Below, one piece after another: positions 43,862-54,004 of a stretch of 64,000 nt of DNA. Source of the stretch: an uncultured Acidobacteriota bacterium (GTDB taxonomy: Bacteria > Acidobacteriota > Thermoanaerobaculia > Multivoradales > UBA5704); contig OY969474.1 in assembly GCA_963700145.1 (NCBI GenBank), forward strand, positions 288,001-352,000, in the 5' to 3' direction. A model generated the notes under the pieces. It did not search any database. It was not told where the DNA came from and worked only from the letters and a program-made list of their open reading frames with translations. The translations under genes were made by a program, and so were the position numbers. Position 1 is the first letter of the stretch; every line of letters begins with the position of its first letter.

Positions 43862-44008
43862 GGCTGCCTCCTTGAAGTGAGGAGACCATCTCCTCTTTCA
43901 GAAGGACGGACTCGCCGCGAGTTTTCACAAATGAGGTCGATTGCGGAACTTCTGATCTGTGCCTCACGGCCTGTGTGGCTTCTCTCGCTGGCGCCGGTAG
44001 TCGGCCCC

Positions 44009-44656
44009 TTAGCCCGGCCACCGGTACCCGAGCACCGAGTCCGCCCGGTAGGCCCGAACCTTGACCCGGTTCTCTTGATTGCCGCCGAGGAGTTCGAGGA
44101 GGGCACCGCGGGGGGCGAAGAAGAAGGCGACGTGGCCTTGGGCCGGGTTGTTGCCTCGCCGCAGGACGACGACGCAGCCGCTCCGCGGTCTCTCTAGAGG
44201 CCGGCCCCACGCCAGCCAGGAACGGGCGGCGGCGGAGTCCGTGCCGCGCAGGCCGGCTCGGCGTAGACACCAGTTGACGAAGGCCGAGCACCAGGGGACC
44301 TCGTCGGCGGTGGCGCGGAGGGCGGTGGTCGCGTGGTACGCGACGATGCGTGGGTTGTGGGTCTCGTCGGGGTACTCGCGGACGCCGATCTCGCGCTTGG
44401 CGAGGGCGAGCCAGGGCGGTTGTCCTTGCGGGCCGCGGAAGGCATCGCCGGTCCACGGCAGCAGGTAGCGCGCCGCGGCCCAGCCGGTGAAGAGGCCTTC
44501 GGGGGCAGCGCGCCGCACTTCGAGCCACCGGCCGTCCGGCGAGGCGCTCAGCCGCTCGAGGACCATGCCGCGCGGCAGGACGGCGAGGACCGGAAACGCC
44601 GTGCCCGGGCCGCGGCGCAGGTTCAAACCGCTGGCGGTGACTTCGACTGCGGTCAT
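44009..44656 (-). CDS. SH3b plus TIGR02594 (NlpC/P60-like) peptidoglycan hydrolase
   Basis: LNLRRGPGT, DEVPWCSAFVNW, SAAARSW, GHVAF, LLGGNQ. Confidence 0.88.
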   Translation of the reverse strand: MTAVEVTASGLNLRRGPGTAFPVLAVLPRGMVLERLSASPDGRWLEVRRAAPEGLFTGWAAARYLLPWTGDAFRGPQGQPPWLALAKREIGVREYPDETHNPRIVAYHATTALRATADEVPWCSAFVNWCLRRAGLRGTDSAAARSWLAWGRPLERPRSGCVVVLRRGNNPAQGHVAFFFAPRGALLELLGGNQENRVKVRAYRADSVLGYRWPG

Positions 44657-44736
44657 CGCATCGCCCTCCATGAACGGGGGACCGATCGCCCGGGGCGCCC
44701 CCCCATGCCCGTCGGGGCGCCCCGGGACCGGGACGT

Positions 44737-45096
44737 CTACTGCTCCTGCTCCTCCTGCTTGCCGTCGATCGCCTTGGCGAGGTCGAACTCGGCCTCGGTG
44801 AGGCTGCGGGCGAGGCGGCTGACCAGCGTCACGACGATGCGGTTGGGCCGCAGGTCGAGGTCGGCGCTCAGGCCGTGGTCGAACGCGGTCTCGGTGACGA
44901 AGTGGGCGAAGGCGACGGCCGCGCGGGGGCTCGAGAGCGTGTAGCGCCGCGAGATCTCCGTCGCGTTGCGCGCGGCGCTCCAGCCGGGCAGCTCGCGCAG
45001 GAGCTCCTGGATGCGCTCGGCCTTGAGCCTCGCGGTGACCGGGGTCGGCGCCGCCGGCGCCGGGTGCCCTGACGTGTGCGTGGTGGTCCTCTCCAT
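44737..45096 (-). CDS. Pterin-4a-carbinolamine dehydratase (PCD/DCoH)-fold protein lacking the catalytic His motif
   Basis: LPGW, ISRRY, LTEAEFDLAKAID; no HHP motif. Confidence 0.7.
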   Translation of the reverse strand: MERTTTHTSGHPAPAAPTPVTARLKAERIQELLRELPGWSAARNATEISRRYTLSSPRAAVAFAHFVTETAFDHGLSADLDLRPNRIVVTLVSRLARSLTEAEFDLAKAIDGKQEEQEQ

Positions 45097-45145
45097 AGGC
45101 GTCCTCCTTCCTGACGCGCCGGCCTTCGGTGGCCGGCGCACCCGC

Positions 45146-45210
45146 ATTATAGTCTGATACTCTGCCGTTTACCACTGTCTATTGACAATAGAGTCAGAGA
45201 CTCCGATACT
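45146..45210. promoter_or_regulatory. Divergent promoters with a palindrome over the -35
   Basis: Plus strand TTGACA(45182)-N17-GATACT; minus strand TATAAT at 45146-51; TCTATTG-A-CAATAGA at 45178-45192. Confidence 0.65.
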
Positions 45211-45312
45211 TCTTCGACTTTTTCGCCCGCGGGCAGAGGAGAAGGTGTGAACAGACCGGGTCGGCTAGTAAAGCGCGTGGATCAGGAGACGGATGGGCTG
45301 GGTCGGCGGCTC

Positions 45313-45543
45313 GATCCAGTCGGTTCGGCTGTGGATCGATTCGGTTCCGCTGTGGATCCACTCGGTTCTGGCGTGGATCGGTTCGGTTCCGCCGCCGATC
45401 CGCTCGGTTCCGGCGTGGATCGACTCAGTTCGGCCGCGGATCGATTCGGTTCCGCTGCGGATCCACTCGGTTCCGGCCTGGATCGACTCGGTTCGGCCGC
45501 CGATCCACTCGCTTCCGGCGCCGATCGATTCGGTTCGTGCCGC
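45313..45543 (+). repeat. Tandem array of 11 x 21 bp (GATCnnnTCGGTTCnGnnGnn)
   Basis: GATC at 45313+21n for n=0 to 10. Confidence 0.95.
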
Positions 45544-45597
45544 GGGCCGCCCTCATCGGATGGCGGTGCGATCAACCTGTAACGGAAAGGAGGCAGC

Positions 45598-45984
45598 ATG
45601 GCTATCAACGGAAACTCACTGTCCGAACGTGTCACCCGCTGGCAGGTCGTGGTCGAGAACCTTCGCGAAGGCGAAGGCTTCAGCCACATCGCGGCGGATC
45701 TCCAGCGGCTCGAGGAGCGCATCGCCGAGGCGCGGACCGTCCAGAACCAGCTCGAGGACCTGCGCTCGCAGTTCCGGGCGCAGACCGCGCGGGTCCGCAA
45801 GCTCGCCATCGAGGGCGACTCGCTCCGCGCGCGCATCGGGGCCAGCCTGCGCAGCAAGCACGGCTTCACCAGCGAGGCGCTCATCAAGTACGGCTTCAAG
45901 CCGCTGCGGGTGCCGCGGCGGCGCTCGAAGAAGCCGGAGGCGGGCACGACGCCTCCCACGGTCCAGACCCAAGCCGCGGAGTGA
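45598..45984 (+). CDS. Small helical/coiled-coil protein with basic C-terminal patch
   Basis: AAAGGAGG SD; heptad-like helices; KYGFKPLRVPRRRSKK. Confidence 0.8.
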   Translation: MAINGNSLSERVTRWQVVVENLREGEGFSHIAADLQRLEERIAEARTVQNQLEDLRSQFRAQTARVRKLAIEGDSLRARIGASLRSKHGFTSEALIKYGFKPLRVPRRRSKKPEAGTTPPTVQTQAAE

Positions 45985-46026
45985 GCGGCGCCCTCATCAC
46001 CGCAACAGGACGAGAAAGGAGGAGCG

Positions 46027-46221
46027 ATGTCGCGAACCGAACGGCGGTCCTCCCGGCGTCGGGCGTCGAAGGGCGGCCGCTTCCTGGCCGACCCTGACGC
46101 CGATCCCGACGCGAAGTCGTTCGCCGGCCCGACGCTGACCCAGGCGTCGGACCGGGCCTGGCGTGACCGGCGCCGCCAGCGGCGGCGGCGGCTCGCCCGG
46201 CACTACGGCGAGGGGGACTGA
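46027..46221 (+). CDS. Small Arg-rich protein
   Basis: AAAGGAGG SD, 64 aa, fills the intergenic gap. Confidence 0.5.
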   Translation: MSRTERRSSRRRASKGGRFLADPDADPDAKSFAGPTLTQASDRAWRDRRRQRRRRLARHYGEGD

Positions 46222-46298
46222 CCGAAGCCCGGCGCGGCGGGCGTGGCGCAAGCGCGCCCGCCGCGCCTTTTTCCGACCGCTGCACGAGGAGCGACCCG

Positions 46299-46820
46299 AT
46301 GCCCGAGCCCGCGCGCCGCACGTTTCCGACGTCCCTGCGCGACACCGTCCGCGGCTGGCTGGAGCCCGCCGGCTGGACCTTCGAGGAGCAGGAGCACCCC
46401 GCGGTCGGCGTCGGCCTGGCCGACGGCGAGTTCCTCTGGGTCGATGCGGCCGTCCGCGACAACGTCGCCGTGCTCGTCGCCGAGCCGGCCACCGGCCCCG
46501 AGCGGCTGTTCGTCTGCTACCACTTCTCGCTCGACCTCGCCGAGCGCGACCGCCTCGAGCGGCTGGGCCGCGCGGAGCGCGTGCAGCTCGCCTGGGACGT
46601 CCTGAGCCACCTGAACCTCCTCCAGGTCGAGTACGTGATCGACGCCACCGTCCCCAACGACCTCCTGCTCTACATCGAGGTGCCCCGCCCGAGCCTGGCG
46701 TGCGACGCGCTGCTCGGCCACCTGCAGCGGCTCGGCGCCGCCATGCGGCTCGTCTCCGTCGCCTACACCAAGGCGCTCGGCACGCTCGACGACCAGCCCG
46801 CCGCGCCGTCCGTGCATTGA
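46299..46820 (+). CDS. Hypothetical protein (possibly YbjN/DUF2299-like)
   Basis: GAGGAG SD, host-like codon usage. Confidence 0.65.
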   Translation: MPEPARRTFPTSLRDTVRGWLEPAGWTFEEQEHPAVGVGLADGEFLWVDAAVRDNVAVLVAEPATGPERLFVCYHFSLDLAERDRLERLGRAERVQLAWDVLSHLNLLQVEYVIDATVPNDLLLYIEVPRPSLACDALLGHLQRLGAAMRLVSVAYTKALGTLDDQPAAPSVH

Positions 46821-46827
46821 CGGAAAA

Positions 46828-46897
46828 CGCCCGGCACGTAGGCCGGGCGCTACGCCTCCCGCTCCGGCGCCGTAGCGCCCGGCCCACGTGCCGGGCG
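46828..46897. repeat. Inverted REP doublet between convergent genes
   Basis: Minus copy 46828-46853 and plus copy 46872-46897, 18-bp spacer. Confidence 0.88.
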
Positions 46898-46899
46898 TT

Positions 46900-48246
46900 C
46901 TAGCCCGCACCTTCCAGCACCTGCCCGGTCAGCATCAGGAGCCCGGCGCGGAAGCCCCCGGCCGGCAGCTCGCGCAGCACCTCGCGCCAGACCTCGGCGA
47001 CGAGCCGGCGGTCGGCGCTGCCCGCCGCGGCCGCGTCGCTCAGCCGACGCAGCGCCGCGCGCACCTTGGGCGGCAGCGCCCGGGCGCGGACGAGCGGTGC
47101 GAGCTTCGGCGCCATCCGCATCAGCTCGCGCCGGCGGCCGCGCCAGATCCAGAGGCTGGCCAGGTGAATGCCGGCGACGGCCGCCGCCTCGGCTGAGCCC
47201 GCGGCGAGCGCCTCCGCGAACGCCGCGGTGAGTCGCCGCTCGGCCTCGTCGGCGCGGCCGGCCAGCGCCGCCGCTTGCGCGGCGGTCACGCCGAGGACGG
47301 CGCGCAGCGCCGGGTCGTCGAGCGCCGCCGGGTCCGCTTGCCCCAGCACCGCCTCGGCCTGGTCGGCGCGGTCGAAGCGGAGGAGGAGTTGCGCGAGCAT
47401 CAGCCGCCCGCGCGTCGCCGCCGCCGGGTCGGCGAGCCGGCTCGACAGCAGGAACGAGCGCGAGAAGAGGCCCACGGCGCGCTCCAAGTCCCCGAGGTCG
47501 GCATAGAGCGTGCCCTGTTCTTCGAGCGCCAGGCTCTGCTGCGCCACCTCGCCGCACTCCTCGAAGAGCGTCACCGCCCGCTGATAGAGCGCCAGCGCTT
47601 CGGGCGCCCGCTTGCCGGCGCGCCGGAAGCCGGCGAGGCGCCGCGCCAGCACCGCGGCCTCGAACGAGTCCTGCTCCTCGAGGAGGTCGGAGGCGGTTCG
47701 GAAGGCGAGCTCGGCGCTCGGGAGCTCGCCGCGCCGATGGAGCGCCTGGCCGACGAGCGTGTAGCCGCCGCTCTGGAGGTCGCGCACGCCGGCGCCCGGC
47801 GGCAGCCGCTGGAGGACGGTCAGCGCGAGCCGCGCCAGCTCCTCGGCGGCGTCGGGCTGCGTGTCGGCGGCCTGGCCGCCGCGCTCGAGGAGCGTCAGGA
47901 CGACGGCGGCCGTGTTGAAGCGCTCCTCGCCGCGGAGCGCGAGCGTCCGCCGCTCCCTCGGCAGCGCCAAAAGCTCGTCGACCAGCGGCCCGGCCGCCGC
48001 CCGCTCGGCGGCGATCGCCGCCGAGCGCGCCTCCCAGCGCCGGGCGAGCCGCGGCCAGGCCCGCTCGAGCTCCGGCGCGCCGGCCGCCGGCGCCACGCCG
48101 GCCGCCGTCTGAGCGAGCTGGCCGGCGATCGGCCGCGCCAGGTTGCGACAGCGCGAGCAGGCGAGGAGGTGGCCGAGGACGCCGGCCTGGCGCTCGGTCA
48201 GCGATGTCACGAACGGCAACAGCTCGCCCTCGCGGAAGTGCTCCAT
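46900..48246 (-). CDS. TPR protein with N-terminal zf-HC2-like motif
   Basis: MEHF...HLLACSRCR followed by TPR-like helical repeats. Confidence 0.78.
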   Translation of the reverse strand: MEHFREGELLPFVTSLTERQAGVLGHLLACSRCRNLARPIAGQLAQTAAGVAPAAGAPELERAWPRLARRWEARSAAIAAERAAAGPLVDELLALPRERRTLALRGEERFNTAAVVLTLLERGGQAADTQPDAAEELARLALTVLQRLPPGAGVRDLQSGGYTLVGQALHRRGELPSAELAFRTASDLLEEQDSFEAAVLARRLAGFRRAGKRAPEALALYQRAVTLFEECGEVAQQSLALEEQGTLYADLGDLERAVGLFSRSFLLSSRLADPAAATRGRLMLAQLLLRFDRADQAEAVLGQADPAALDDPALRAVLGVTAAQAAALAGRADEAERRLTAAFAEALAAGSAEAAAVAGIHLASLWIWRGRRRELMRMAPKLAPLVRARALPPKVRAALRRLSDAAAAGSADRRLVAEVWREVLRELPAGGFRAGLLMLTGQVLEGAG

Positions 48247-48551
48247 CGGCTGTCTCGCTCCCGTCACTGGCTCGGTTGCAGGTGTTTGGCTGGATTTGCT
48301 GCTCTCCAGCCCTTTTCATCAGTGACGCTGACATTTCTAGCATAGTGTTGCTGAAGATGGCAAGTAGATGTTCCTCCGAGACGTTGGGTAGCGCCCAGGA
48401 ACTGGCCCCTGCCGTCCGTTGCTCGCCGCCGCATCCGTCGTCCCAGCGGGGGAGCGGACCGCACTACGCTGGTGGGAAAAGAGACAACCCCGCGAGCGCC
48501 GCAGCCATCCCGGCCGTCCGGCGACCCGCCGGGGAACGAGGAGGCTTTGCG

Positions 48552-48779
48552 ATGTCAGGTCGGAAAATCGTGGCAAGCGTGGGGGCGCTCGCGGTGGCGG
48601 CGTTCCTCGTCCTGGGCACACCGGCGCACGCCATCGGCTCGCGCGCCGGCAACGAGGCGCCGCCGGCCCGGGCCAGCGCCCGGCTGGCGTTGGCCGAGCT
48701 GTTGCGGGACGTTCTCGACTTCGTCGGGCTGCGGGCGGTTTGGGAGAATCAGGGTATAGGGATCGATCCGTACGGCTAG
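48552..48779 (+). CDS. 75-aa secreted propeptide ending WENQGIGIDPYG
   Basis: GAGGAGG SD, Sec signal with AHA cleavage site. Confidence 0.78.
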   Translation: MSGRKIVASVGALAVAAFLVLGTPAHAIGSRAGNEAPPARASARLALAELLRDVLDFVGLRAVWENQGIGIDPYG

Positions 48780-48849
48780 CAACAGGAGCGCAAGCGGTTG
48801 TGGCAGAATACGCCCGCTAATCTGCTGAAACCCGGGAGACTGCCCGAGC

Positions 48850-50187
48850 TTGCGCGACCACCCTACGCACGAGACCCTCGACCGCTTCCTGCGCGGGCAG
48901 CTTCCGGCGATCGAGGGTGCCCGCGTCATTGCCCATCTCGTCCGCGGCTGCCGCTTCTGCCAGGCGGCGGCCGCGGATCTCGCGGGGCCGCTCTTCGAGG
49001 AAGGCGAGCCGGAAGACCTCGGGAGCGACGAGGGCGCGGTCTACGAAGTTGATTTCGACCGCGCTTTCGCCGCGGCGGGCCCCGCCGCCGCCGCCCACGA
49101 ACAGGAGACCCTCCTGGCCGACGAGATCTACGCCGCGCTGGTGGCGGGGGGACACTCCGCCATCCCCGCCTCGCACTTCTGCAGCGCCCCTGTCTGCCGC
49201 GCCCTGATGCGGCGGAGCTGGGAGCTGCGGCACGAAGACCCGACCCAGATGCTGCAGCTAGCCCACCTCGCGGTGTACACCGCGAGCCGGCTCGACCCCG
49301 AGCAGGTGGGAACGGTGCGAGTCGCCGAGCTCAACGCCCGTGCGCTCGGCGAGTACGGGAACGCGCAGCGCATCACCGGCGACTTGAGCGGCGCCGACCG
49401 ATCGGTCGAGCAAGCCCTCGCTCTCTACCGGGGCAACGAGGAGGACCGGCTTCTCGGCGCCCACCTGCTGACCATCAGGGCCGCGCTGTTCGGTGATCAG
49501 CGCCGCTTCTCCGAAGCCCTCGACTTGCTCGAGCAGGTAGAGCAGACCTACGAGGAGTTCGGCGAGCGCCATCAGCAGGGGAGAGCGTTGGTCCAGAGGG
49601 GGCTCTATACCGGCTACCGCGGCGAGGTTGCGGAGGGGGTCCGCCTCCTGCGTAGCGCGCTCGCACTGATCGACGAGACGGTCGACCCGAAGCTGGCCCT
49701 GGTAGCTGTTCACAACCTCGCTTGGTTGCTCTCCGAGTGTGGGCAGCTCCGCGAAGGCCGGATACTGTTGTGGGAGAACAGCGGTCGCTACGACCGACAC
49801 GCGGATCGCGTGATGCTCTTGAAGCGCACCTGGCTTGAGGGGTACAACGCCGCGGGCCTCGGCGACCTGGAGCGTGCCGTCGAACGGCTGAGCGACGCGA
49901 TCCAGGGCTTCGACGAGGCAGAGCTGGGCTATCAGGCCGCGCTCGCCACCCTCGACCTCGGCGCCGTCTGGCTGCGCCAAGGCCGCTCGCACGCGGCGTT
50001 GGAGATCCTCGAATACGCTGCCGAGACCTTCGTCGCCATCGGCGTCGGCCGCGAAGCCCTCGGCGCCTTGGCCCTCCTCCAGCAAGCCTGCGAGCAAGAG
50101 AACGTCACCGTAACCTTCGTCCACGAAGTCTCCGCCTTCCTCCGCCGCCTCGAGCACGACCCGGCCGCCCGCTTCAGGCAGCGGTAG
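48850..50187 (+). CDS. TPR protein with N-terminal zf-HC2-like motif
   Basis: MRDHP...AHLVRGCRFCQ, multiple TPR-like repeats; TTG start. Confidence 0.82.
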   Translation: MRDHPTHETLDRFLRGQLPAIEGARVIAHLVRGCRFCQAAAADLAGPLFEEGEPEDLGSDEGAVYEVDFDRAFAAAGPAAAAHEQETLLADEIYAALVAGGHSAIPASHFCSAPVCRALMRRSWELRHEDPTQMLQLAHLAVYTASRLDPEQVGTVRVAELNARALGEYGNAQRITGDLSGADRSVEQALALYRGNEEDRLLGAHLLTIRAALFGDQRRFSEALDLLEQVEQTYEEFGERHQQGRALVQRGLYTGYRGEVAEGVRLLRSALALIDETVDPKLALVAVHNLAWLLSECGQLREGRILLWENSGRYDRHADRVMLLKRTWLEGYNAAGLGDLERAVERLSDAIQGFDEAELGYQAALATLDLGAVWLRQGRSHAALEILEYAAETFVAIGVGREALGALALLQQACEQENVTVTFVHEVSAFLRRLEHDPAARFRQR

Positions 50188-50300
50188 CGCAGCTTCCTTC
50201 TCTAGTACCTCGATAGCTGACCGGCCTCGGCCGCCCTCGATCGCGAACACGAGGTCATCGGGCGCCGCCGCGTGAGGGTGACGCATGCAGCCGGAGCGTG

Positions 50301-50553
50301 CTACGGCGGCCGCTCGGGCGCGCGGACGACTCGCTGGGTGCCGTCTTCGTACAGCGCGCGGACGCTTCCGTCCGGGGATAGCACTTGAAGAGTGCCGCGT
50401 GGCCGGCCCCCTCGCAGCGCAGCCGCACCCCGGACTGGAACTGCCGATGTGACCTGGCACTCCCTGCGCCTGAACCTCGATCCAGTCACGAGGAATTAGA
50501 AGGTCGCCATCGCGTGGGAACTGCAGTGCCCAAAGGGTGGCGTAGATGCTCAT
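50301..50553 (-). pseudogene. Probable remnant of a hypothetical gene
   Basis: MSIYATLWALQFP...AQGVPGHIG in one frame, LRGGRPR...DGSVR in another. Confidence 0.35.
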
Positions 50554-50672
50554 GAGCTTCACCACGCTCGCCGCACCGGTCGGGCCGTGAGACGGCCTGG
50601 AGTGCGCCACGGCTGCGGCGAGGCTGGCGCCGCGTCTTATCTAGGTGGGCCCTGGTGAAAACCCCAGAGTCC

Positions 50673-51977
50673 TCAACGTTCGAGCTCGCCTAGAACCAGA
50701 TCGATCTCCCAGGGCCGCACAAAGCGAACGGGGACTCCTTCCTCGACGGTGTCGAGCCGCAGAGAGGCGTTGACCACGCCCAGGCAGGCCGGACGGTACG
50801 CTTCGAGAAAGCTATGTGTTCCTCGTGACACCGTCGGACGGGCGAGCTCGGCAGCTTTGACTTCAATTGCCACCATCCGTTTCCCGCGCCGCACCACGAA
50901 GTCGACCTCGGCACCGCCCTTCGAGCGCCAGAAGCGGATTTCGTCCAGCAACTCCAAGCGTTTTGCCAGCTCGTTGAAGATTGCATTCTCCCAGAGAGCG
51001 CCGCGGTCAGCCCTCTCGCTGCTCGCCTTGAAGCCGCCGAAGACCGCGTTGCGCAAGCCGTTGTCGAGGAAAAAGACTTTGGGCGTTCCGGAGATCTCGG
51101 AGCGCTTGCCCCCCGCGAACGGTGGCACCAGCCGGAGCACGAGTGCTTCCTCTGCGATCTCGAGGTAACGCCCAACGGTGTTGCGGGAGGCTTGGGCCAA
51201 GCCTGCCCAGTCGGTGAGATTCACCAGATTGCCGATGTCCGCCGCCGCCAGCTCCAGCAGCTTGCGAAACACCGACGGCCGCTCGATCTGATGGAGATCG
51301 GAGGTGTCCTTGAGGACGAAGGCTTCCACCAGGTGATGCAGTGCCGTCGCAGGATCAGAATCGAACCACGGCTCCGGATAACCGCCCGTGACGACGAGCT
51401 TTTCCCACAGGTCGCGGAGCCGCAGGTCGCGGATCGCGGGCGCCAGCCCCGCGGGAACGAGCGCTGCGACCTCCTGGAGAGAAAAGGGCAAGAGCTCAGT
51501 CCGTCGCGCCCGGCCGGCGAGAGACTCCCGCGTCCGCGCGCTGAATGCGAACGACGAGCTGCCGGTGGCGACGATGCGTCGCGACTTGTCGAGGTCGACA
51601 AGGCCCTTGATGAAGAGCGGCGCCTCCGCAAGGTGCTGGATCTCCTCGCACAGAAAGAGGGTCTCGGGGCTCAGCACCTCGGCCAGGGCATCCAGAGCGA
51701 GAGCGGGGGAGTGGGCGAGCTCGCGGATCCGCGGCTCCTCGGCATGAAGGATGAGGACCGGGGCCTCGACGTGAGTCAAGGCTTCCCGAATCCACGTCGA
51801 CTTTCCAGCCTGCCGCGGCCCCACGACCAGCTCTGCGCGCCCCGGACGCAGCTCGAGCCGGCGATGGCGTGCGATGAACAGTTCCGGCAGTGAGGCAGCG
51901 AGCAAAGCAGCTTGATCCGCCGGCCGGTCAAGCCACGGATTGTGCATACGGAGCGTCGCCAGGAGGGCCGGGTCCAT
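50673..51977 (-). CDS. AAA_14 ATPase with DUF4143 and nuclease-like C-terminus
   Basis: GPRQAGKST, EEIQ, ATGSS, ESLAGR, GGYP, EVDFV...AIEVK. Confidence 0.9.
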   Translation of the reverse strand: MDPALLATLRMHNPWLDRPADQAALLAASLPELFIARHRRLELRPGRAELVVGPRQAGKSTWIREALTHVEAPVLILHAEEPRIRELAHSPALALDALAEVLSPETLFLCEEIQHLAEAPLFIKGLVDLDKSRRIVATGSSSFAFSARTRESLAGRARRTELLPFSLQEVAALVPAGLAPAIRDLRLRDLWEKLVVTGGYPEPWFDSDPATALHHLVEAFVLKDTSDLHQIERPSVFRKLLELAAADIGNLVNLTDWAGLAQASRNTVGRYLEIAEEALVLRLVPPFAGGKRSEISGTPKVFFLDNGLRNAVFGGFKASSERADRGALWENAIFNELAKRLELLDEIRFWRSKGGAEVDFVVRRGKRMVAIEVKAAELARPTVSRGTHSFLEAYRPACLGVVNASLRLDTVEEGVPVRFVRPWEIDLVLGELER

Positions 51978-52107
51978 GATCGGCTCAGGTTAACTGTGAG
52001 CAACGAGCCCGGTCAATCGGCATTTGCCCTGACGATTAGTAGGGTTGATCGGCGGGCTCGGGCGCCTGTCGCGCTAGGCTGGGGCACAGCGGCACCGGGA
52101 GAACCCT

Positions 52108-53808
52108 ATGACCGACCCACCGACGCCTGCCCCGCCCGCCGCGACCGTCATCGCCACGCCGTCGCCAGAGAACCGGGAAGCCATGTTCCCGGCATTGACG
52201 GCGGCGCAGCTCGCCCGCGTGGCCGCGCACGGCACCGAGCGCCGGACCGCCCCCGGCGAGGTGCTGGTCGAGGTGGGGGACTCCCACGTGCCGTTCTTCG
52301 TCGTCACCGCCGGCGAGCTCGAGGCCGTGCGCCTCTTCGGCGGCACCGCGACGCGGGTGGCCCTGCACGGCCCCGGCAACTTCACCGGCGAGGTCAGCAC
52401 GCTCGCCGGCCGCCGCGCCCTGGTGAGCGTGCGCGCCACCCAGCCGGGCGCGGTGATCGAGCTCGACCGCGAGGGGCTGCTGGCGCTCGTCCAGACCGAC
52501 GCGGAGCTCTCCGAGATCGTCCTGCGCGCCTTCGTCCTGCGCCGCGTGGAGCTCGTCGCCCAGGGCCTCGGCGACGTCGTCCTGGTCGGCTCCGACCACT
52601 GCTCGGGCACGCTGCGGGTGCGCGAGTTCCTGACCCGCAACGGCCATCCCTACGCCTACATCGACCTCGACCGCGACGAGGGCGTCCAGGAGCTCCTCGA
52701 CCGCTTCCACGTCGCCGCTGCCGACGTGCCGATCGTCATCTGTCGCGGCGAGATCGTGCTGCGCAACCCGACTAACCAGCAGATCGCCGGCTGCCTCGGC
52801 TTCAACGACGCCATCGACCAGAGCCTGGTGCGCGACCTCGTCGTCATCGGCGCCGGCCCCTCCGGTCTCGCGGCCGCGGTCTACGGCGCCTCGGAAGGGC
52901 TCGACGTCCTGGTGGTGGAGGCGAGCTCACCCGGCGGCCAGGCCGGCGCCAGCTCGCGGATCGAGAACTACCTGGGATTTCCCACCGGCATCTCCGGCCA
53001 GGAGCTCGCCGGCCGGGCCTACACGCAGGCGGAGAAGTTCGGGGCGAAGGTGGCGATCCCCCGTAGCGCCCGGCGCCTCGCCTGCGACCGCCGCCCGTAC
53101 GTGCTCGAGCTCGACGCCGGCCCGCCGGTGCCGGCCCGCGCGGTGATCATCGCCACCGGTGCCGAGTACCGGCGGCTCGCCCTCGACGACCTCGGCCGGT
53201 TCGAGGGCGCCGGGGTCTACTACCTGGCCACCTTCATGGAGGCGCGGCTGTGCCGCGACGAGGAGATCGCCGTCGTGGGCGGCGGCAACTCCGCCGGCCA
53301 GGCCGCGGTGTTTTTGGCGCAGACCGCGCGGCACGTCCACGTGCTGGTGCGCGCGCGGGGGCTGGCGGACAGCATGTCGCGCTACCTCGTCCGTCGCCTC
53401 GAAGGCACCCCCAACATCACGCTGCATACGCGGACGGAGATCGTGGCGCTCGAGGGCGAGGCCCACGTCGAGCGCGTGCGCTGGCGCGACGGCGCGGAGC
53501 AGACGGTCGAGAGCCACGACATCCGCCACGTCTTCGTCATGACGGGCGCAGTGCCGAGCACGCGGTGGCTCGCCGGCTGCGTGGCGCTCGACGAGAAGGG
53601 CTTCATCAAGACCGGGACGACGCTGACGCCGGAGGACCTCGCCGCGGCGGGCTGGCCGCTGGCACGGCTGCCTCACTTGCTGGAGACCAGCCTGCCGGGC
53701 GTCTTCGCGGTCGGCGACGTGCGCAGCGGCAGCTTCAAGCGCGTGGCCTCGGCGGTCGGCGAGGGCTCGATCGCCGTCGCCCTCGTCCACCAAGTGCTGC
53801 ACGAGTAG
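52108..53808 (+). CDS. cNMP-binding domain thioredoxin-reductase-like flavoprotein
   Basis: N-terminal cNMP fold, GAGPSG, SSRIENYLGFPTG, GGGNSAGQ, GDVRSGS. Confidence 0.9.
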   Translation: MTDPPTPAPPAATVIATPSPENREAMFPALTAAQLARVAAHGTERRTAPGEVLVEVGDSHVPFFVVTAGELEAVRLFGGTATRVALHGPGNFTGEVSTLAGRRALVSVRATQPGAVIELDREGLLALVQTDAELSEIVLRAFVLRRVELVAQGLGDVVLVGSDHCSGTLRVREFLTRNGHPYAYIDLDRDEGVQELLDRFHVAAADVPIVICRGEIVLRNPTNQQIAGCLGFNDAIDQSLVRDLVVIGAGPSGLAAAVYGASEGLDVLVVEASSPGGQAGASSRIENYLGFPTGISGQELAGRAYTQAEKFGAKVAIPRSARRLACDRRPYVLELDAGPPVPARAVIIATGAEYRRLALDDLGRFEGAGVYYLATFMEARLCRDEEIAVVGGGNSAGQAAVFLAQTARHVHVLVRARGLADSMSRYLVRRLEGTPNITLHTRTEIVALEGEAHVERVRWRDGAEQTVESHDIRHVFVMTGAVPSTRWLAGCVALDEKGFIKTGTTLTPEDLAAAGWPLARLPHLLETSLPGVFAVGDVRSGSFKRVASAVGEGSIAVALVHQVLHE

Positions 53809-54004
53809 CAGTCGCGCCGATGCTCCGGCGTTCATAAGCTTCTTCTCCCTAAATCATCGAATGTATGAGATCTGGCTCCTGGCTCGAGGGCCTCCTCGAC
53901 CCCGGCCGGCGCTCTTTCTCCTCGGGAACCGACCGCTCCAGGGACACTCTCCGCCCGTGGCATTCCTCTTGCGAAATGGGCTCCCACCTACCGAGGAGAT
54001 AGCG

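Follow-up and report, generated by a model that had tools for sequence, protein, structure and literature searches.

The question raised by positions 46,900 to 50,187 of contig stretch OY969474.1:288,001-352,000 (64,000 nucleotides from an uncultured Acidobacteriota bacterium, hereafter the window) is whether a small exported-type peptide encoded there is read by a cytoplasmic tetratricopeptide repeat (TPR) protein encoded beside it. A 75-aa open reading frame (ORF) lies between two TPR genes, here named TPR-A and TPR-B. The original prediction had taken the three genes for a candidate RRNPP-like signalling system, possibly with a zinc-finger output to an extracytoplasmic function (ECF) sigma factor. 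The analysis showed that the pairing of the propeptide gene with TPR-B is real, conserved and unusual, and modelling and covariation point to recognition of the C-terminal peptide core by TPR-B. None of the three outcomes that would have spoken against the original interpretation (homologous TPR genes without peptides, a tail that varies freely, no sign of binding) was obtained, binding being predicted computationally, and that interpretation is supported.

The 75-aa ORF was located on the forward strand at 48552-48779, with an ATG at 48552, and is nested within a longer ORF call of 191 aa (48204-48779). A Shine-Dalgarno sequence, GAGGAGG (48538-48544), precedes the start codon by 7 nt. The product reads MSGRK...TPAHA/IGS...WENQGIGIDPYG and is closed by a stop codon at 48777-48779. 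Its top 19-residue hydrophobic stretch was found at residues 6-24 (Kyte-Doolittle mean 2.14), and the 19-residue hydropathy maximum of both TPR proteins was 1.3, which indicates neither a membrane segment nor a signal peptide. TPR-B begins with a TTG start codon 70 nt 3' of the propeptide stop. Near their N-termini, TPR-B carries H29-x4-C34-x2-C37 and TPR-A carries H-x3-C-x2-C. The hidden ORF with its strong Shine-Dalgarno sequence, PAHA signal and tail, as well as the downstream and divergent TPR genes with their H-x3/4-C-x2-C motifs and no signal peptide, were thus all present as originally described. The amphipathic helix also claimed for the propeptide agreed with a hydrophobic moment of 0.65 per residue over residues 41-64, which is a crude check only. 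No Pfam or NCBIfam match was obtained for the propeptide, and TPR-A and TPR-B gave only sub-threshold TPR matches.

The genome of origin, a single contig of 5.46 Mb, contained 23 matches to TPR-B at E ≤ 0.001, of which 14 were near full length. Reading of the upstream DNA showed that most of these 14 paralogs are preceded by a small ORF of the propeptide build, in which an AXA signal peptide leads into a Trp-rich helix and [GC]-[ILVM]-D-P-x-G stands at the C-terminus. Two paralogs of the propeptide were identified (E 3.6e-12 and 2.2e-4), each directly 5' of a TPR-B paralog. In addition, every stop-to-stop ORF of 40 aa or more in the genome (59,536 in total) was scanned by features only, that is, for a signal-peptide pattern and D[PG]xG within the last 45 residues. 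Only 12 ORFs passed, and 11 of the 12 were situated at most 1,500 bp upstream of, and on the same strand as, one of the 14 near-full-length paralogs; ten adjoin the receptor gene, with 9-136 nt separating the peptide stop from the receptor start, and in one case an ECF sigma gene intervenes. Since 11 of the 12 ORFs chosen on features alone sit upstream of TPR-B paralogs, the arrangement is far beyond chance. The 12 cores of this genome were all mutually different.

Some copies in the same genome showed further structure. A duplicate of the whole three-gene unit was observed at 4273044-4276297 (locus L008), with identities of 75% for TPR-A, 50% for the propeptide and 59% for TPR-B. It looks decayed, as its propeptide ORF has no stop after G-G-V-D-P-Y and its TPR-A copy has an in-frame TGA. 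Modules at 3.20, 3.11, 3.38 and 3.89 Mb (e.g. L119) have a block of neighbouring ORFs in common and a second, shorter TPR paralog downstream of the receptor. Nine of ten neighbouring ORFs tested from these four modules had no Pfam family and one had a Lar-type zinc ribbon. The shared block may be a segmental duplication of a larger cassette.

Relatives of TPR-B in the protein collection numbered at least 169 proteins at E ≤ 1e-5 among 8,000 candidates scored. They were named only 'hypothetical protein' or 'TPR repeat protein' and, where an organism was given, belonged to Thermoanaerobaculia or Acidobacteriota. Of 41 genomes (the window's own and 40 relatives), 38 have the receptor family. Within the window's family every one of the 24 other genomes has it, with at least 12-43 matches each when scoring was limited to 41 candidates per genome. 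In an even sample of 301 genomes across the phylum, in which five candidates per genome were scored, the family profile matched at E ≤ 1e-30 in at least six genomes, all of the same class and five of the same order as the window's genome. The sixth genome, which is from another order, has two such loci; their products are zinc-finger TPR proteins, and no core-bearing peptide was seen upstream of either gene.

The original prediction had proposed a search for small ORFs beside homologous TPR genes. For this, 103 discovery loci were collected (14 from the own genome, the best one from each of 29 relative genomes and 60 further in list order), and eligibility required that the N-terminal match be intact and that 700 nt or more of DNA be available upstream. 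Under an automatic rule that asked for an upstream ORF with a signal peptide and D[PG]xG, a peptide was detected in 79 of the 94 eligible loci (10/12 own, 18/23 best-per-relative and 51/59 further). At least three of the missed loci bear variant peptides that the rule rejected: L039, L049 (I-D-N-N-G) and L096 (I-E-P-N-G). Among 40 later, held-out loci, 37 were eligible and 26 of these had the peptide. Overall, 105 of 131 loci had an upstream exported-type peptide, and the tail, whose conservation was likewise to be checked, is kept across genera as G-x-x-[IVLM]-D-P-x-G. A motif sampler run on the upstream regions of 83 peptide genes recovered AAGGAGG 6-9 nt before the ATG as the strongest shared signal, followed by Ser-Arg codons, a pattern that looks like translated genes.

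The 83 precursors are 61-152 aa in length (median 101). Their core consensus is [DEQ]-x-G-x-x-[IVLM]-D-P-[ND and others]-G, in which G(-4), D and the final G are near-invariant and positions -3, -2, -1 and +2 vary. One core was present in 57 precursors, two in 20 and three in 6. The four variable positions were 70% identical between cores of the same precursor (31 pairs) and 29% between precursors (3,003 pairs). The core therefore behaves as a functional unit of the precursor, because repeated cores are alike within one precursor and differ between precursors. It stands at the very C-terminus in 24/83 precursors and is followed by 1-3 residues in 17 more. In 16/83 a core has a Cys on either side, a hint at disulfide loops that would form outside the cytoplasm; together, the tandem and the Cys-flanked cores favour a released, extracytoplasmic peptide. 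A Trp-rich helix between signal peptide and core is conserved family-wide.

The receptor was modelled with AlphaFold2 from an alignment of 54 sequences. The model of TPR-B was all-helical and confident, with a predicted local distance difference test score (pLDDT) of 87.3 and a predicted template modelling score (pTM) of 0.77, and was laid out as three short N-terminal helices, a long linker helix (59-104) and a TPR superhelix (113-436). A Foldseek search returned peptide-binding TPR superhelices, with LGN/Pins on top (E 1.9e-7, template modelling score 0.47-0.56). Lower matches included the RapJ-PhrC complex (4gyo, rank 23, E 2.2e-5), RapI/RapF, MalT domain III and kinesin light chain.

Co-folding of the C-terminal residues with the TPR protein had also been proposed, and TPR-B was co-folded with propeptide residues 27-75 alongside three controls. 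The last nine residues were predicted in the TPR-B groove with a score of 0.62, against 0.01 for the best of the three controls. Of 80 solved complexes 58 reached this mark, and of 110 mismatched pairs 2 did, a calibration that applies only roughly here because the co-fold was run on unpaired alignments supplied for it. The co-fold runs shared at least 56% of contacts. The confident interface of the propeptide consisted of residues 67-75 (QGIGIDPYG) only, lying along the concave inner groove and touching 26 residues of TPR-B, among them the invariant R127, N171 and L282 and the near-invariant H288 and Y361.

The co-fold could not draw on covariation between the chains, its two alignments (54 and 29 rows, of different origin) being unpaired. 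Such covariation, the further check attached to the original prediction, was measured as mutual information with average product correction in 83 cognate pairs, for each of the 1,530 combinations of 306 variable columns in the receptor with 5 variable positions in the peptide. Ranks 1, 2 and 3 went to receptor position 292 with peptide -3, 252 with -2 and 249 with +2, and all three are among the 17 scorable co-fold contacts. Five of the top ten pairs were contacts (hypergeometric p 2e-8, rank test p 8e-4). W292 pairs with Gly(-3) (25/32 W), L252 with Gly(-2) (24/30 L), I252 with Ala or Cys, and K249 with Asp(+2) (15/17 K), and these residue pairings are chemically sensible. Co-changes were then counted in phylogenetically independent pairs on a FastTree tree built without the scored columns, and same-to-opposite ratios were about 10:0 for W292/G(-3), about 12:0 for L252/G(-2) and 10:0 for K249/D(+2) (sign tests 5e-4 to 0.002).

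Because the three pairing rules came from the discovery tables, the 40 further loci were taken as a hold-out and gave 26 new pairs, in which two of the three rules held. All six Gly(-3) cores were paired with W292, and one of seven W292 receptors had a non-Gly core (Fisher p 3e-5); L252/G(-2) was observed in 6/8 (p 0.003). The closest ortholog of the module pointed the same way. Its propeptide is 85% identical with differences clustered in the core, which reads QGPAIDPNG versus QGIGIDPYG (three of four variable positions changed), and its receptor is 87% identical, with 7/26 interface residues differing versus 59/445 overall (p 0.04) and L252I standing beside Gly to Ala at -2. Overall, recognition of the peptide core by TPR-B is computationally well supported, and on the predicted complex and the covariation we rate it as probable.

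The idea of two TPR receptors around one peptide stood for TPR-B, on its groove and its pairing, and did not extend to TPR-A. At about 24% identity, where the register is uncertain, TPR-A differs from the family groove by R127A, N171Q, R174H, H288L, N289M, K325V, W328V and Y361E. TPR-A was not counted as a receptor of the peptide because most conserved groove residues are changed, and it is probably not the receptor of QGIGIDPYG. It is nearest to the sigma-linked paralogs of its own genome (E 1.3e-18 and 9.6e-14), with TPR-B at only 2.3e-6, and it matched an antisigmaE subfamily at E 0.037. TPR-A is a distant paralog within the superfamily; it may be anti-sigma-like and respond to another input.

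The output of the system was sought in the N-terminal domain. Across 71 N-terminal segments, H29, C34 and C37 were invariant and H4 was conserved in at least 90%. The ligand pattern of TPR-B, H-x24-H-x4-C-x2-C, agrees with that of zinc-binding anti-sigma factors (ZAS, class I anti-sigma domain), H/C-x(23-26)-H-x3-C-x2-C, apart from its H-x4-C spacing. The N-terminal profile searched against the PDB matched the anti-sigma proteins DdvA (8rlz, 3.9e-5), ChrR (2q1z, 4.9e-4) and RslA (3hug, 7.6e-3), and also a CHAT-domain protein (8rot, 2.5e-3). Judged by these sequence matches, the N-terminus of TPR-B is likely a zinc-binding anti-sigma-like domain.

An ECF sigma gene was found directly 5' of the receptor gene in 21 of 131 loci (8/94 and 13/37 eligible). 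In the 13 held-out cases the sigma gene was always on the receptor strand and ended -1 to 29 nt before the receptor start, and in 7/13 a core-bearing peptide ORF lay 5' of the sigma gene. The same was seen in the own genome, where the TPR-B paralogs at 795 and 798 kb each have an ECF sigma gene directly 5' and a core-bearing peptide ORF 5' of each sigma gene. The sigma proteins at 797 and 799 kb passed the ECF model TIGR02937 with 67.9 and 63.6 bits (cut-off 42.9). In a third module of this genome a sigma gene of the same subfamily is divergent from the peptide gene, and a fourth sigma copy stands alone. The operon of peptide, sigma and receptor is likely the ancestral form of the module. At 794300-801200 (L121), the minus strand bears two tandem operons; in both, the peptide gene comes first, followed by the ECF sigma gene and then by the gene of the zinc-finger TPR protein. 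The predicted zinc-finger output to an ECF sigma factor is accordingly backed in part, by the anti-sigma profile matches and the abutting sigma genes, and lacks a sigma gene in the window's own locus.

From these observations the following circuit is proposed. The 75-aa product would be a Sec-exported propeptide cut by signal peptidase I after AHA. A core of about QGIGIDPYG would be released outside the inner membrane, accumulate, be taken up again and dock in the TPR groove of cytoplasmic TPR-B, and docking would alter the hold of the N-terminal domain on its ECF sigma factor, a member of a dedicated subfamily. Three-gene operons of peptide, sigma and receptor would allow autoinduction. The window's module, one of a dozen in the genome, would act on one of four sigma paralogs encoded elsewhere, since it has no sigma gene of its own. 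The steps of export, processing, outer-membrane passage and re-import, as well as the direction of the response and the sigma factor served by this copy, are inferred only. The own genome has three binding-protein genes of the Opp/Dpp type (SBP_bac_5), which indicates capacity only. One of them, at 1860979-1862022, was observed about 2.7 kb from the peptide-gene start of the 1.857-Mb module and about 8 kb from the 1.852-Mb module, possibly by coincidence. Taken as a whole, with exported propeptide, core as TPR-B ligand and anti-sigma output, we consider this mechanism somewhat better than an even bet.

Several points weigh against it. The whole case for the circuit is computational. Covariation and co-fold show recognition and not its place, and binding of an unexported precursor gives the same signals. 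The peptide pLDDT in the co-fold was low (48-50), the three pairing rules had been picked after the discovery tables were seen, and in the hold-out the K249/D(+2) rule failed (1/4 D cores, p 0.29). More than three residues follow the last core in 42/83 precursors, so extra C-terminal processing would be required there, and the conserved Trp-rich helix is not accounted for by a simple pro-region. In the loci read, no exporter, protease or importer gene was linked to the modules, and the host is double-membraned. On the output side, Pfam zf-HC2 was matched by 13 of the 71 N-terminal domains at E ≤ 0.1 (best 5.9e-4), all under the curated cut-off, and no sigma gene was found beside the window's module (44000-54000), the four sigma genes of the subfamily lying elsewhere in the genome.

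A serious rival concerns where the core meets its receptor. TPR chaperones of secretion systems bind their substrates, and TPR-B may bind the core of the unexported precursor, with export then freeing TPR-B or altering its hold on sigma, with no re-import and no cell-to-cell signalling. Such a secretion-coupled switch or chaperone would explain co-fold and covariation equally well, needs no outer-membrane passage, importer or protease (none of which is linked to modules), and fits the 42/83 precursors that continue beyond the last core. However, it leaves the tandem cores (26/83) and the Cys-flanked cores (16/83) without an obvious role. A Sec substrate of about 75-100 aa should also undergo rapid export, and it is hard to see why a monitor of secretion would need a dozen or more mutually distinct pairs in each genome. 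We therefore regard it as unlikely, and the two remaining rivals as less likely still.

The conserved Trp-rich helix after the signal peptide could instead belong to a membrane-active exported peptide of the bacteriocin or kin-discrimination type, with the TPR protein as an immunity or regulatory factor that recognises the tail. The strong expansion and diversification (12-43 copies per genome) are typical of antagonism loci, and cognate specificity has co-evolved. This reading is quite improbable, as the unit repeated within precursors is the short D-P-x-G core and not the helix, the loci read have no immunity-type membrane protein or dedicated ATP-binding cassette exporter beside the pairs, and the anti-sigma-type N-terminus and abutting ECF sigma genes indicate gene regulation. 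RsrA is an example of a zinc-binding anti-sigma factor that senses the oxidation of thiols, and with this precedent peptide and receptor might be co-regulated neighbours without contact, the peptide being a periplasmic operon product (e.g. a sigma target) and TPR-B sensing, for example, redox through its zinc site. Binding of peptide and receptor is, after all, predicted only. Covariation, however, sits at the predicted contacts (ranks 1-3 of 1,530), two rules were confirmed out of sample, and family-invariant polar residues line the groove, which leaves absence of contact a very remote prospect. A precursor of a ribosomally synthesized and post-translationally modified peptide with a TPR accessory protein was rejected, as no modifying-enzyme family was present among the neighbours and the precursor has a Sec-type signal. 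An NCBIfam HaaT TPR match reached 26.4 bits against a cut-off of 1125.

The coordinates of the module are given in Table 1. The conserved block in the 70-nt spacer, TGTGGCAGAATACGCCCGCTAATCTGCTGAAACCCGG, is near-identical at two other loci, that of the genus ortholog (L030) and that of the 59%-identical paralog (L008), where its flanks diverge. It could act as an internal promoter or promote translation from the TTG start.

Table 1. Features of the peptide-receptor module in the window and leader hairpins of other family loci.
Feature	Position	Strand	Description
TPR-A	46900..48267	-	455-aa cytoplasmic zinc-finger and TPR protein, divergent; ORF, TPR_12 E 5.9e-7
Divergent spacer	48268..48551		284 bp, lower G+C, presumed promoters; GCACTACG at 48461-48468; GAGGAGG at 48538-48544
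Propeptide gene	48552..48779	+	75 aa; signal peptide 1-27 (48552-48632, AHA/IG), helical pro-region, C-terminal core
Core QGIGIDPYG	48750..48776	+	Residues 67-75, predicted ligand; co-fold, family core, covariation
Conserved block TGTGGCAGAATACGCCCGCTAATCTGCTGAAACCCGG	48799..48836	+	Within the 70-nt spacer between propeptide and receptor genes
TPR-B	48850..50187	+	445-aa cytoplasmic putative receptor; anti-sigma-like N-terminus (H4, H29, C34, C37), linker helix, TPR superhelix
Leader hairpin examples	L088:1014-1070; L089:1871-1928(-); L115:985-1042; L072:1764-1821(-)		

A scan of 48150-50400 for sigma-70 promoters and terminators returned no promoter and one terminator-like site on the minus strand, which is chance level. 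GCACT/CACTA words were enriched upstream of the family's peptide genes, and their reading as promoters is tentative. In the regions further 5' of 78 peptide genes the motif sampler did not converge for all; a subset had TTC-N15-CACACTA(G). Many peptide genes of other genera (not clearly those of the own genome) showed a GC-rich hairpin or palindrome of about 45 nt that ends 2-6 nt before the Shine-Dalgarno sequence and has the form CCGCGGGC...GGGGCC-AUGG-...CCCGCGG. A subset of these leaders was preceded by a GCAACG-N4-6-CGTTGC hairpin and a promoter-like motif, TTC-N15-CACACTAG. Searches with the leader element of 15 loci gave no Rfam match at E ≤ 1 beyond Pab91 (E 0.19), and RNAalifold on MAFFT alignments gave one compensatory pair. 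With no Rfam match and weak covariation, RNA structure and DNA operator are not separable for the leader hairpin. For the window's own leader, folding was not stronger than in shuffled sequences (z -0.91).

The neighbours of the module seem unrelated to it. The ORFs at 44009-45175(-) and 50673-51977(-) correspond to an SH3 and CHAP cell-wall hydrolase-like protein and an AAA_14/DUF4143 ATPase, and a 566-aa ORF at 52108-53808(+), judged by eye, seems to join a cyclic-nucleotide-binding domain to a thioredoxin-reductase-like protein. At 45313-45537, just 5' of a 128-aa coiled-coil-like ORF (45598-45984), a 21-bp unit is repeated in tandem 10.4 times with 75% matches, and higher-order periods occur at 42 and 63 bp.

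Peptide pheromones read by cytoplasmic TPR receptors are, to our knowledge, regarded as a hallmark of Bacillota and their phages, and control of ECF sigma factors is held to lie mainly with membrane anti-sigma factors, C-terminal extensions or kinases. If the proposed circuit is true, TPR-B would belong to the first family of cytoplasmic peptide-pheromone receptors outside Bacillota and the first in a double-membraned bacterium, and would represent a new class of ECF sigma input. A soluble anti-sigma factor with a peptide-binding TPR sensor would join the fields of peptide pheromones and ECF sigma factors, a link strengthened by the encoded exported ligand. The abundant and little-studied Acidobacteriota of soil would gain a many-channel communication or kin-recognition system, and the specificity code, peptide -3 and -2 versus receptor 292 and 252, would be usable for orthogonal peptide-controlled sigma switches. 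It is conceivable, though we hold it with some doubt, that Thermoanaerobaculia independently invented RRNPP-style signalling by fusing an anti-sigma domain to a TPR domain, with a dozen to more than 40 orthogonal channels per genome converging on few ECF sigmas.

Published surveys, as far as their accessible text goes, report RRNPPA genes from Firmicutes and, with the exception of a single genus, from class Bacilli (PMC9765709), and frame RRNPP systems as a Bacillota trait (PMC10075063). Soluble anti-sigma factors are described for 10 ECF groups, with others possible, and TPRs are mentioned, in the accessible part of the same source, only for ECF42 extensions and the FecR-like factor of ECF267 (PMC7826278). 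No description of this family or of a peptide-paired TPR anti-sigma factor was found in full-text searches of the literature; the supplementary tables of PMC7826278 might list a matching group.

Known systems offer four points of comparison. Rap-Phr, NprR-NprX, PlcR-PapR and AimR-AimP each pair a TPR receptor with an adjacent exported propeptide whose C-terminal residues are the signal. The original comparison with them stood for the architecture (TPR receptor, adjacent exported-type propeptide and predicted C-terminal ligand) and did not stand for homology or for the effector domain. Among the Pfam and NCBIfam matches no RRNPP family was present, and the family profile against the PDB reached RapF only at E 0.007, ranked below generic TPR proteins such as kinesin light chain and designed TPRs. 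From its sequences, the family would work like RRNPP but is not an RRNPP member. As in Rap-Phr, a small gene for a Sec-exported propeptide adjoins the gene of a cytoplasmic receptor, the receptor joins a helical effector domain at its N-terminus through a linker to a TPR superhelix, the ligand (predicted here) is a short unmodified peptide of the C-terminal part, and many paralogous pairs of diverged specificity occur per genome. Repeated units in some propeptides are a further likeness, described for Rap-Phr in the accessible part of PMC11343458. Unlike Rap-Phr, the family has no specific sequence relationship to Rap proteins, whose structures rank 23 or lower by Foldseek; the effector is a putative zinc-binding anti-sigma-like domain and not the Rap three-helix bundle or a helix-turn-helix (HTH); the host is a double-membraned acidobacterium; the peptide gene is upstream of the receptor gene; and the core, 8-9 residues long, contains an invariant D-P-x-G turn.

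NprR-NprX, PlcR-PapR and AimR-AimP follow the logic proposed for the module, in which a propeptide is exported, its C-terminal part becomes the mature peptide and a TPR receptor in the cytoplasm controls transcription. Their receptors bind DNA by HTH, whereas indirect control through an ECF sigma factor is proposed here, and there is no sequence match. The eukaryotic TPR protein LGN/Pins is the best structural match to the superhelix and binds extended peptides along its inner groove, but this is a resemblance of fold only (16-19% identity) in an unrelated biological setting. Finally, compared with the ZAS proteins ChrR, RslA and DdvA, TPR-B is soluble with no membrane helix and has H-x4-C in place of the usual H-x3-C, its sensor would be a cytoplasmic TPR superhelix paired with an exported-type peptide, and most copies, including that of the window, stand without an adjacent sigma gene; the likeness to them lies in the N-terminal segment of about 50 residues that matches the profile and in the ECF sigma gene that abuts upstream in 21/131 loci.

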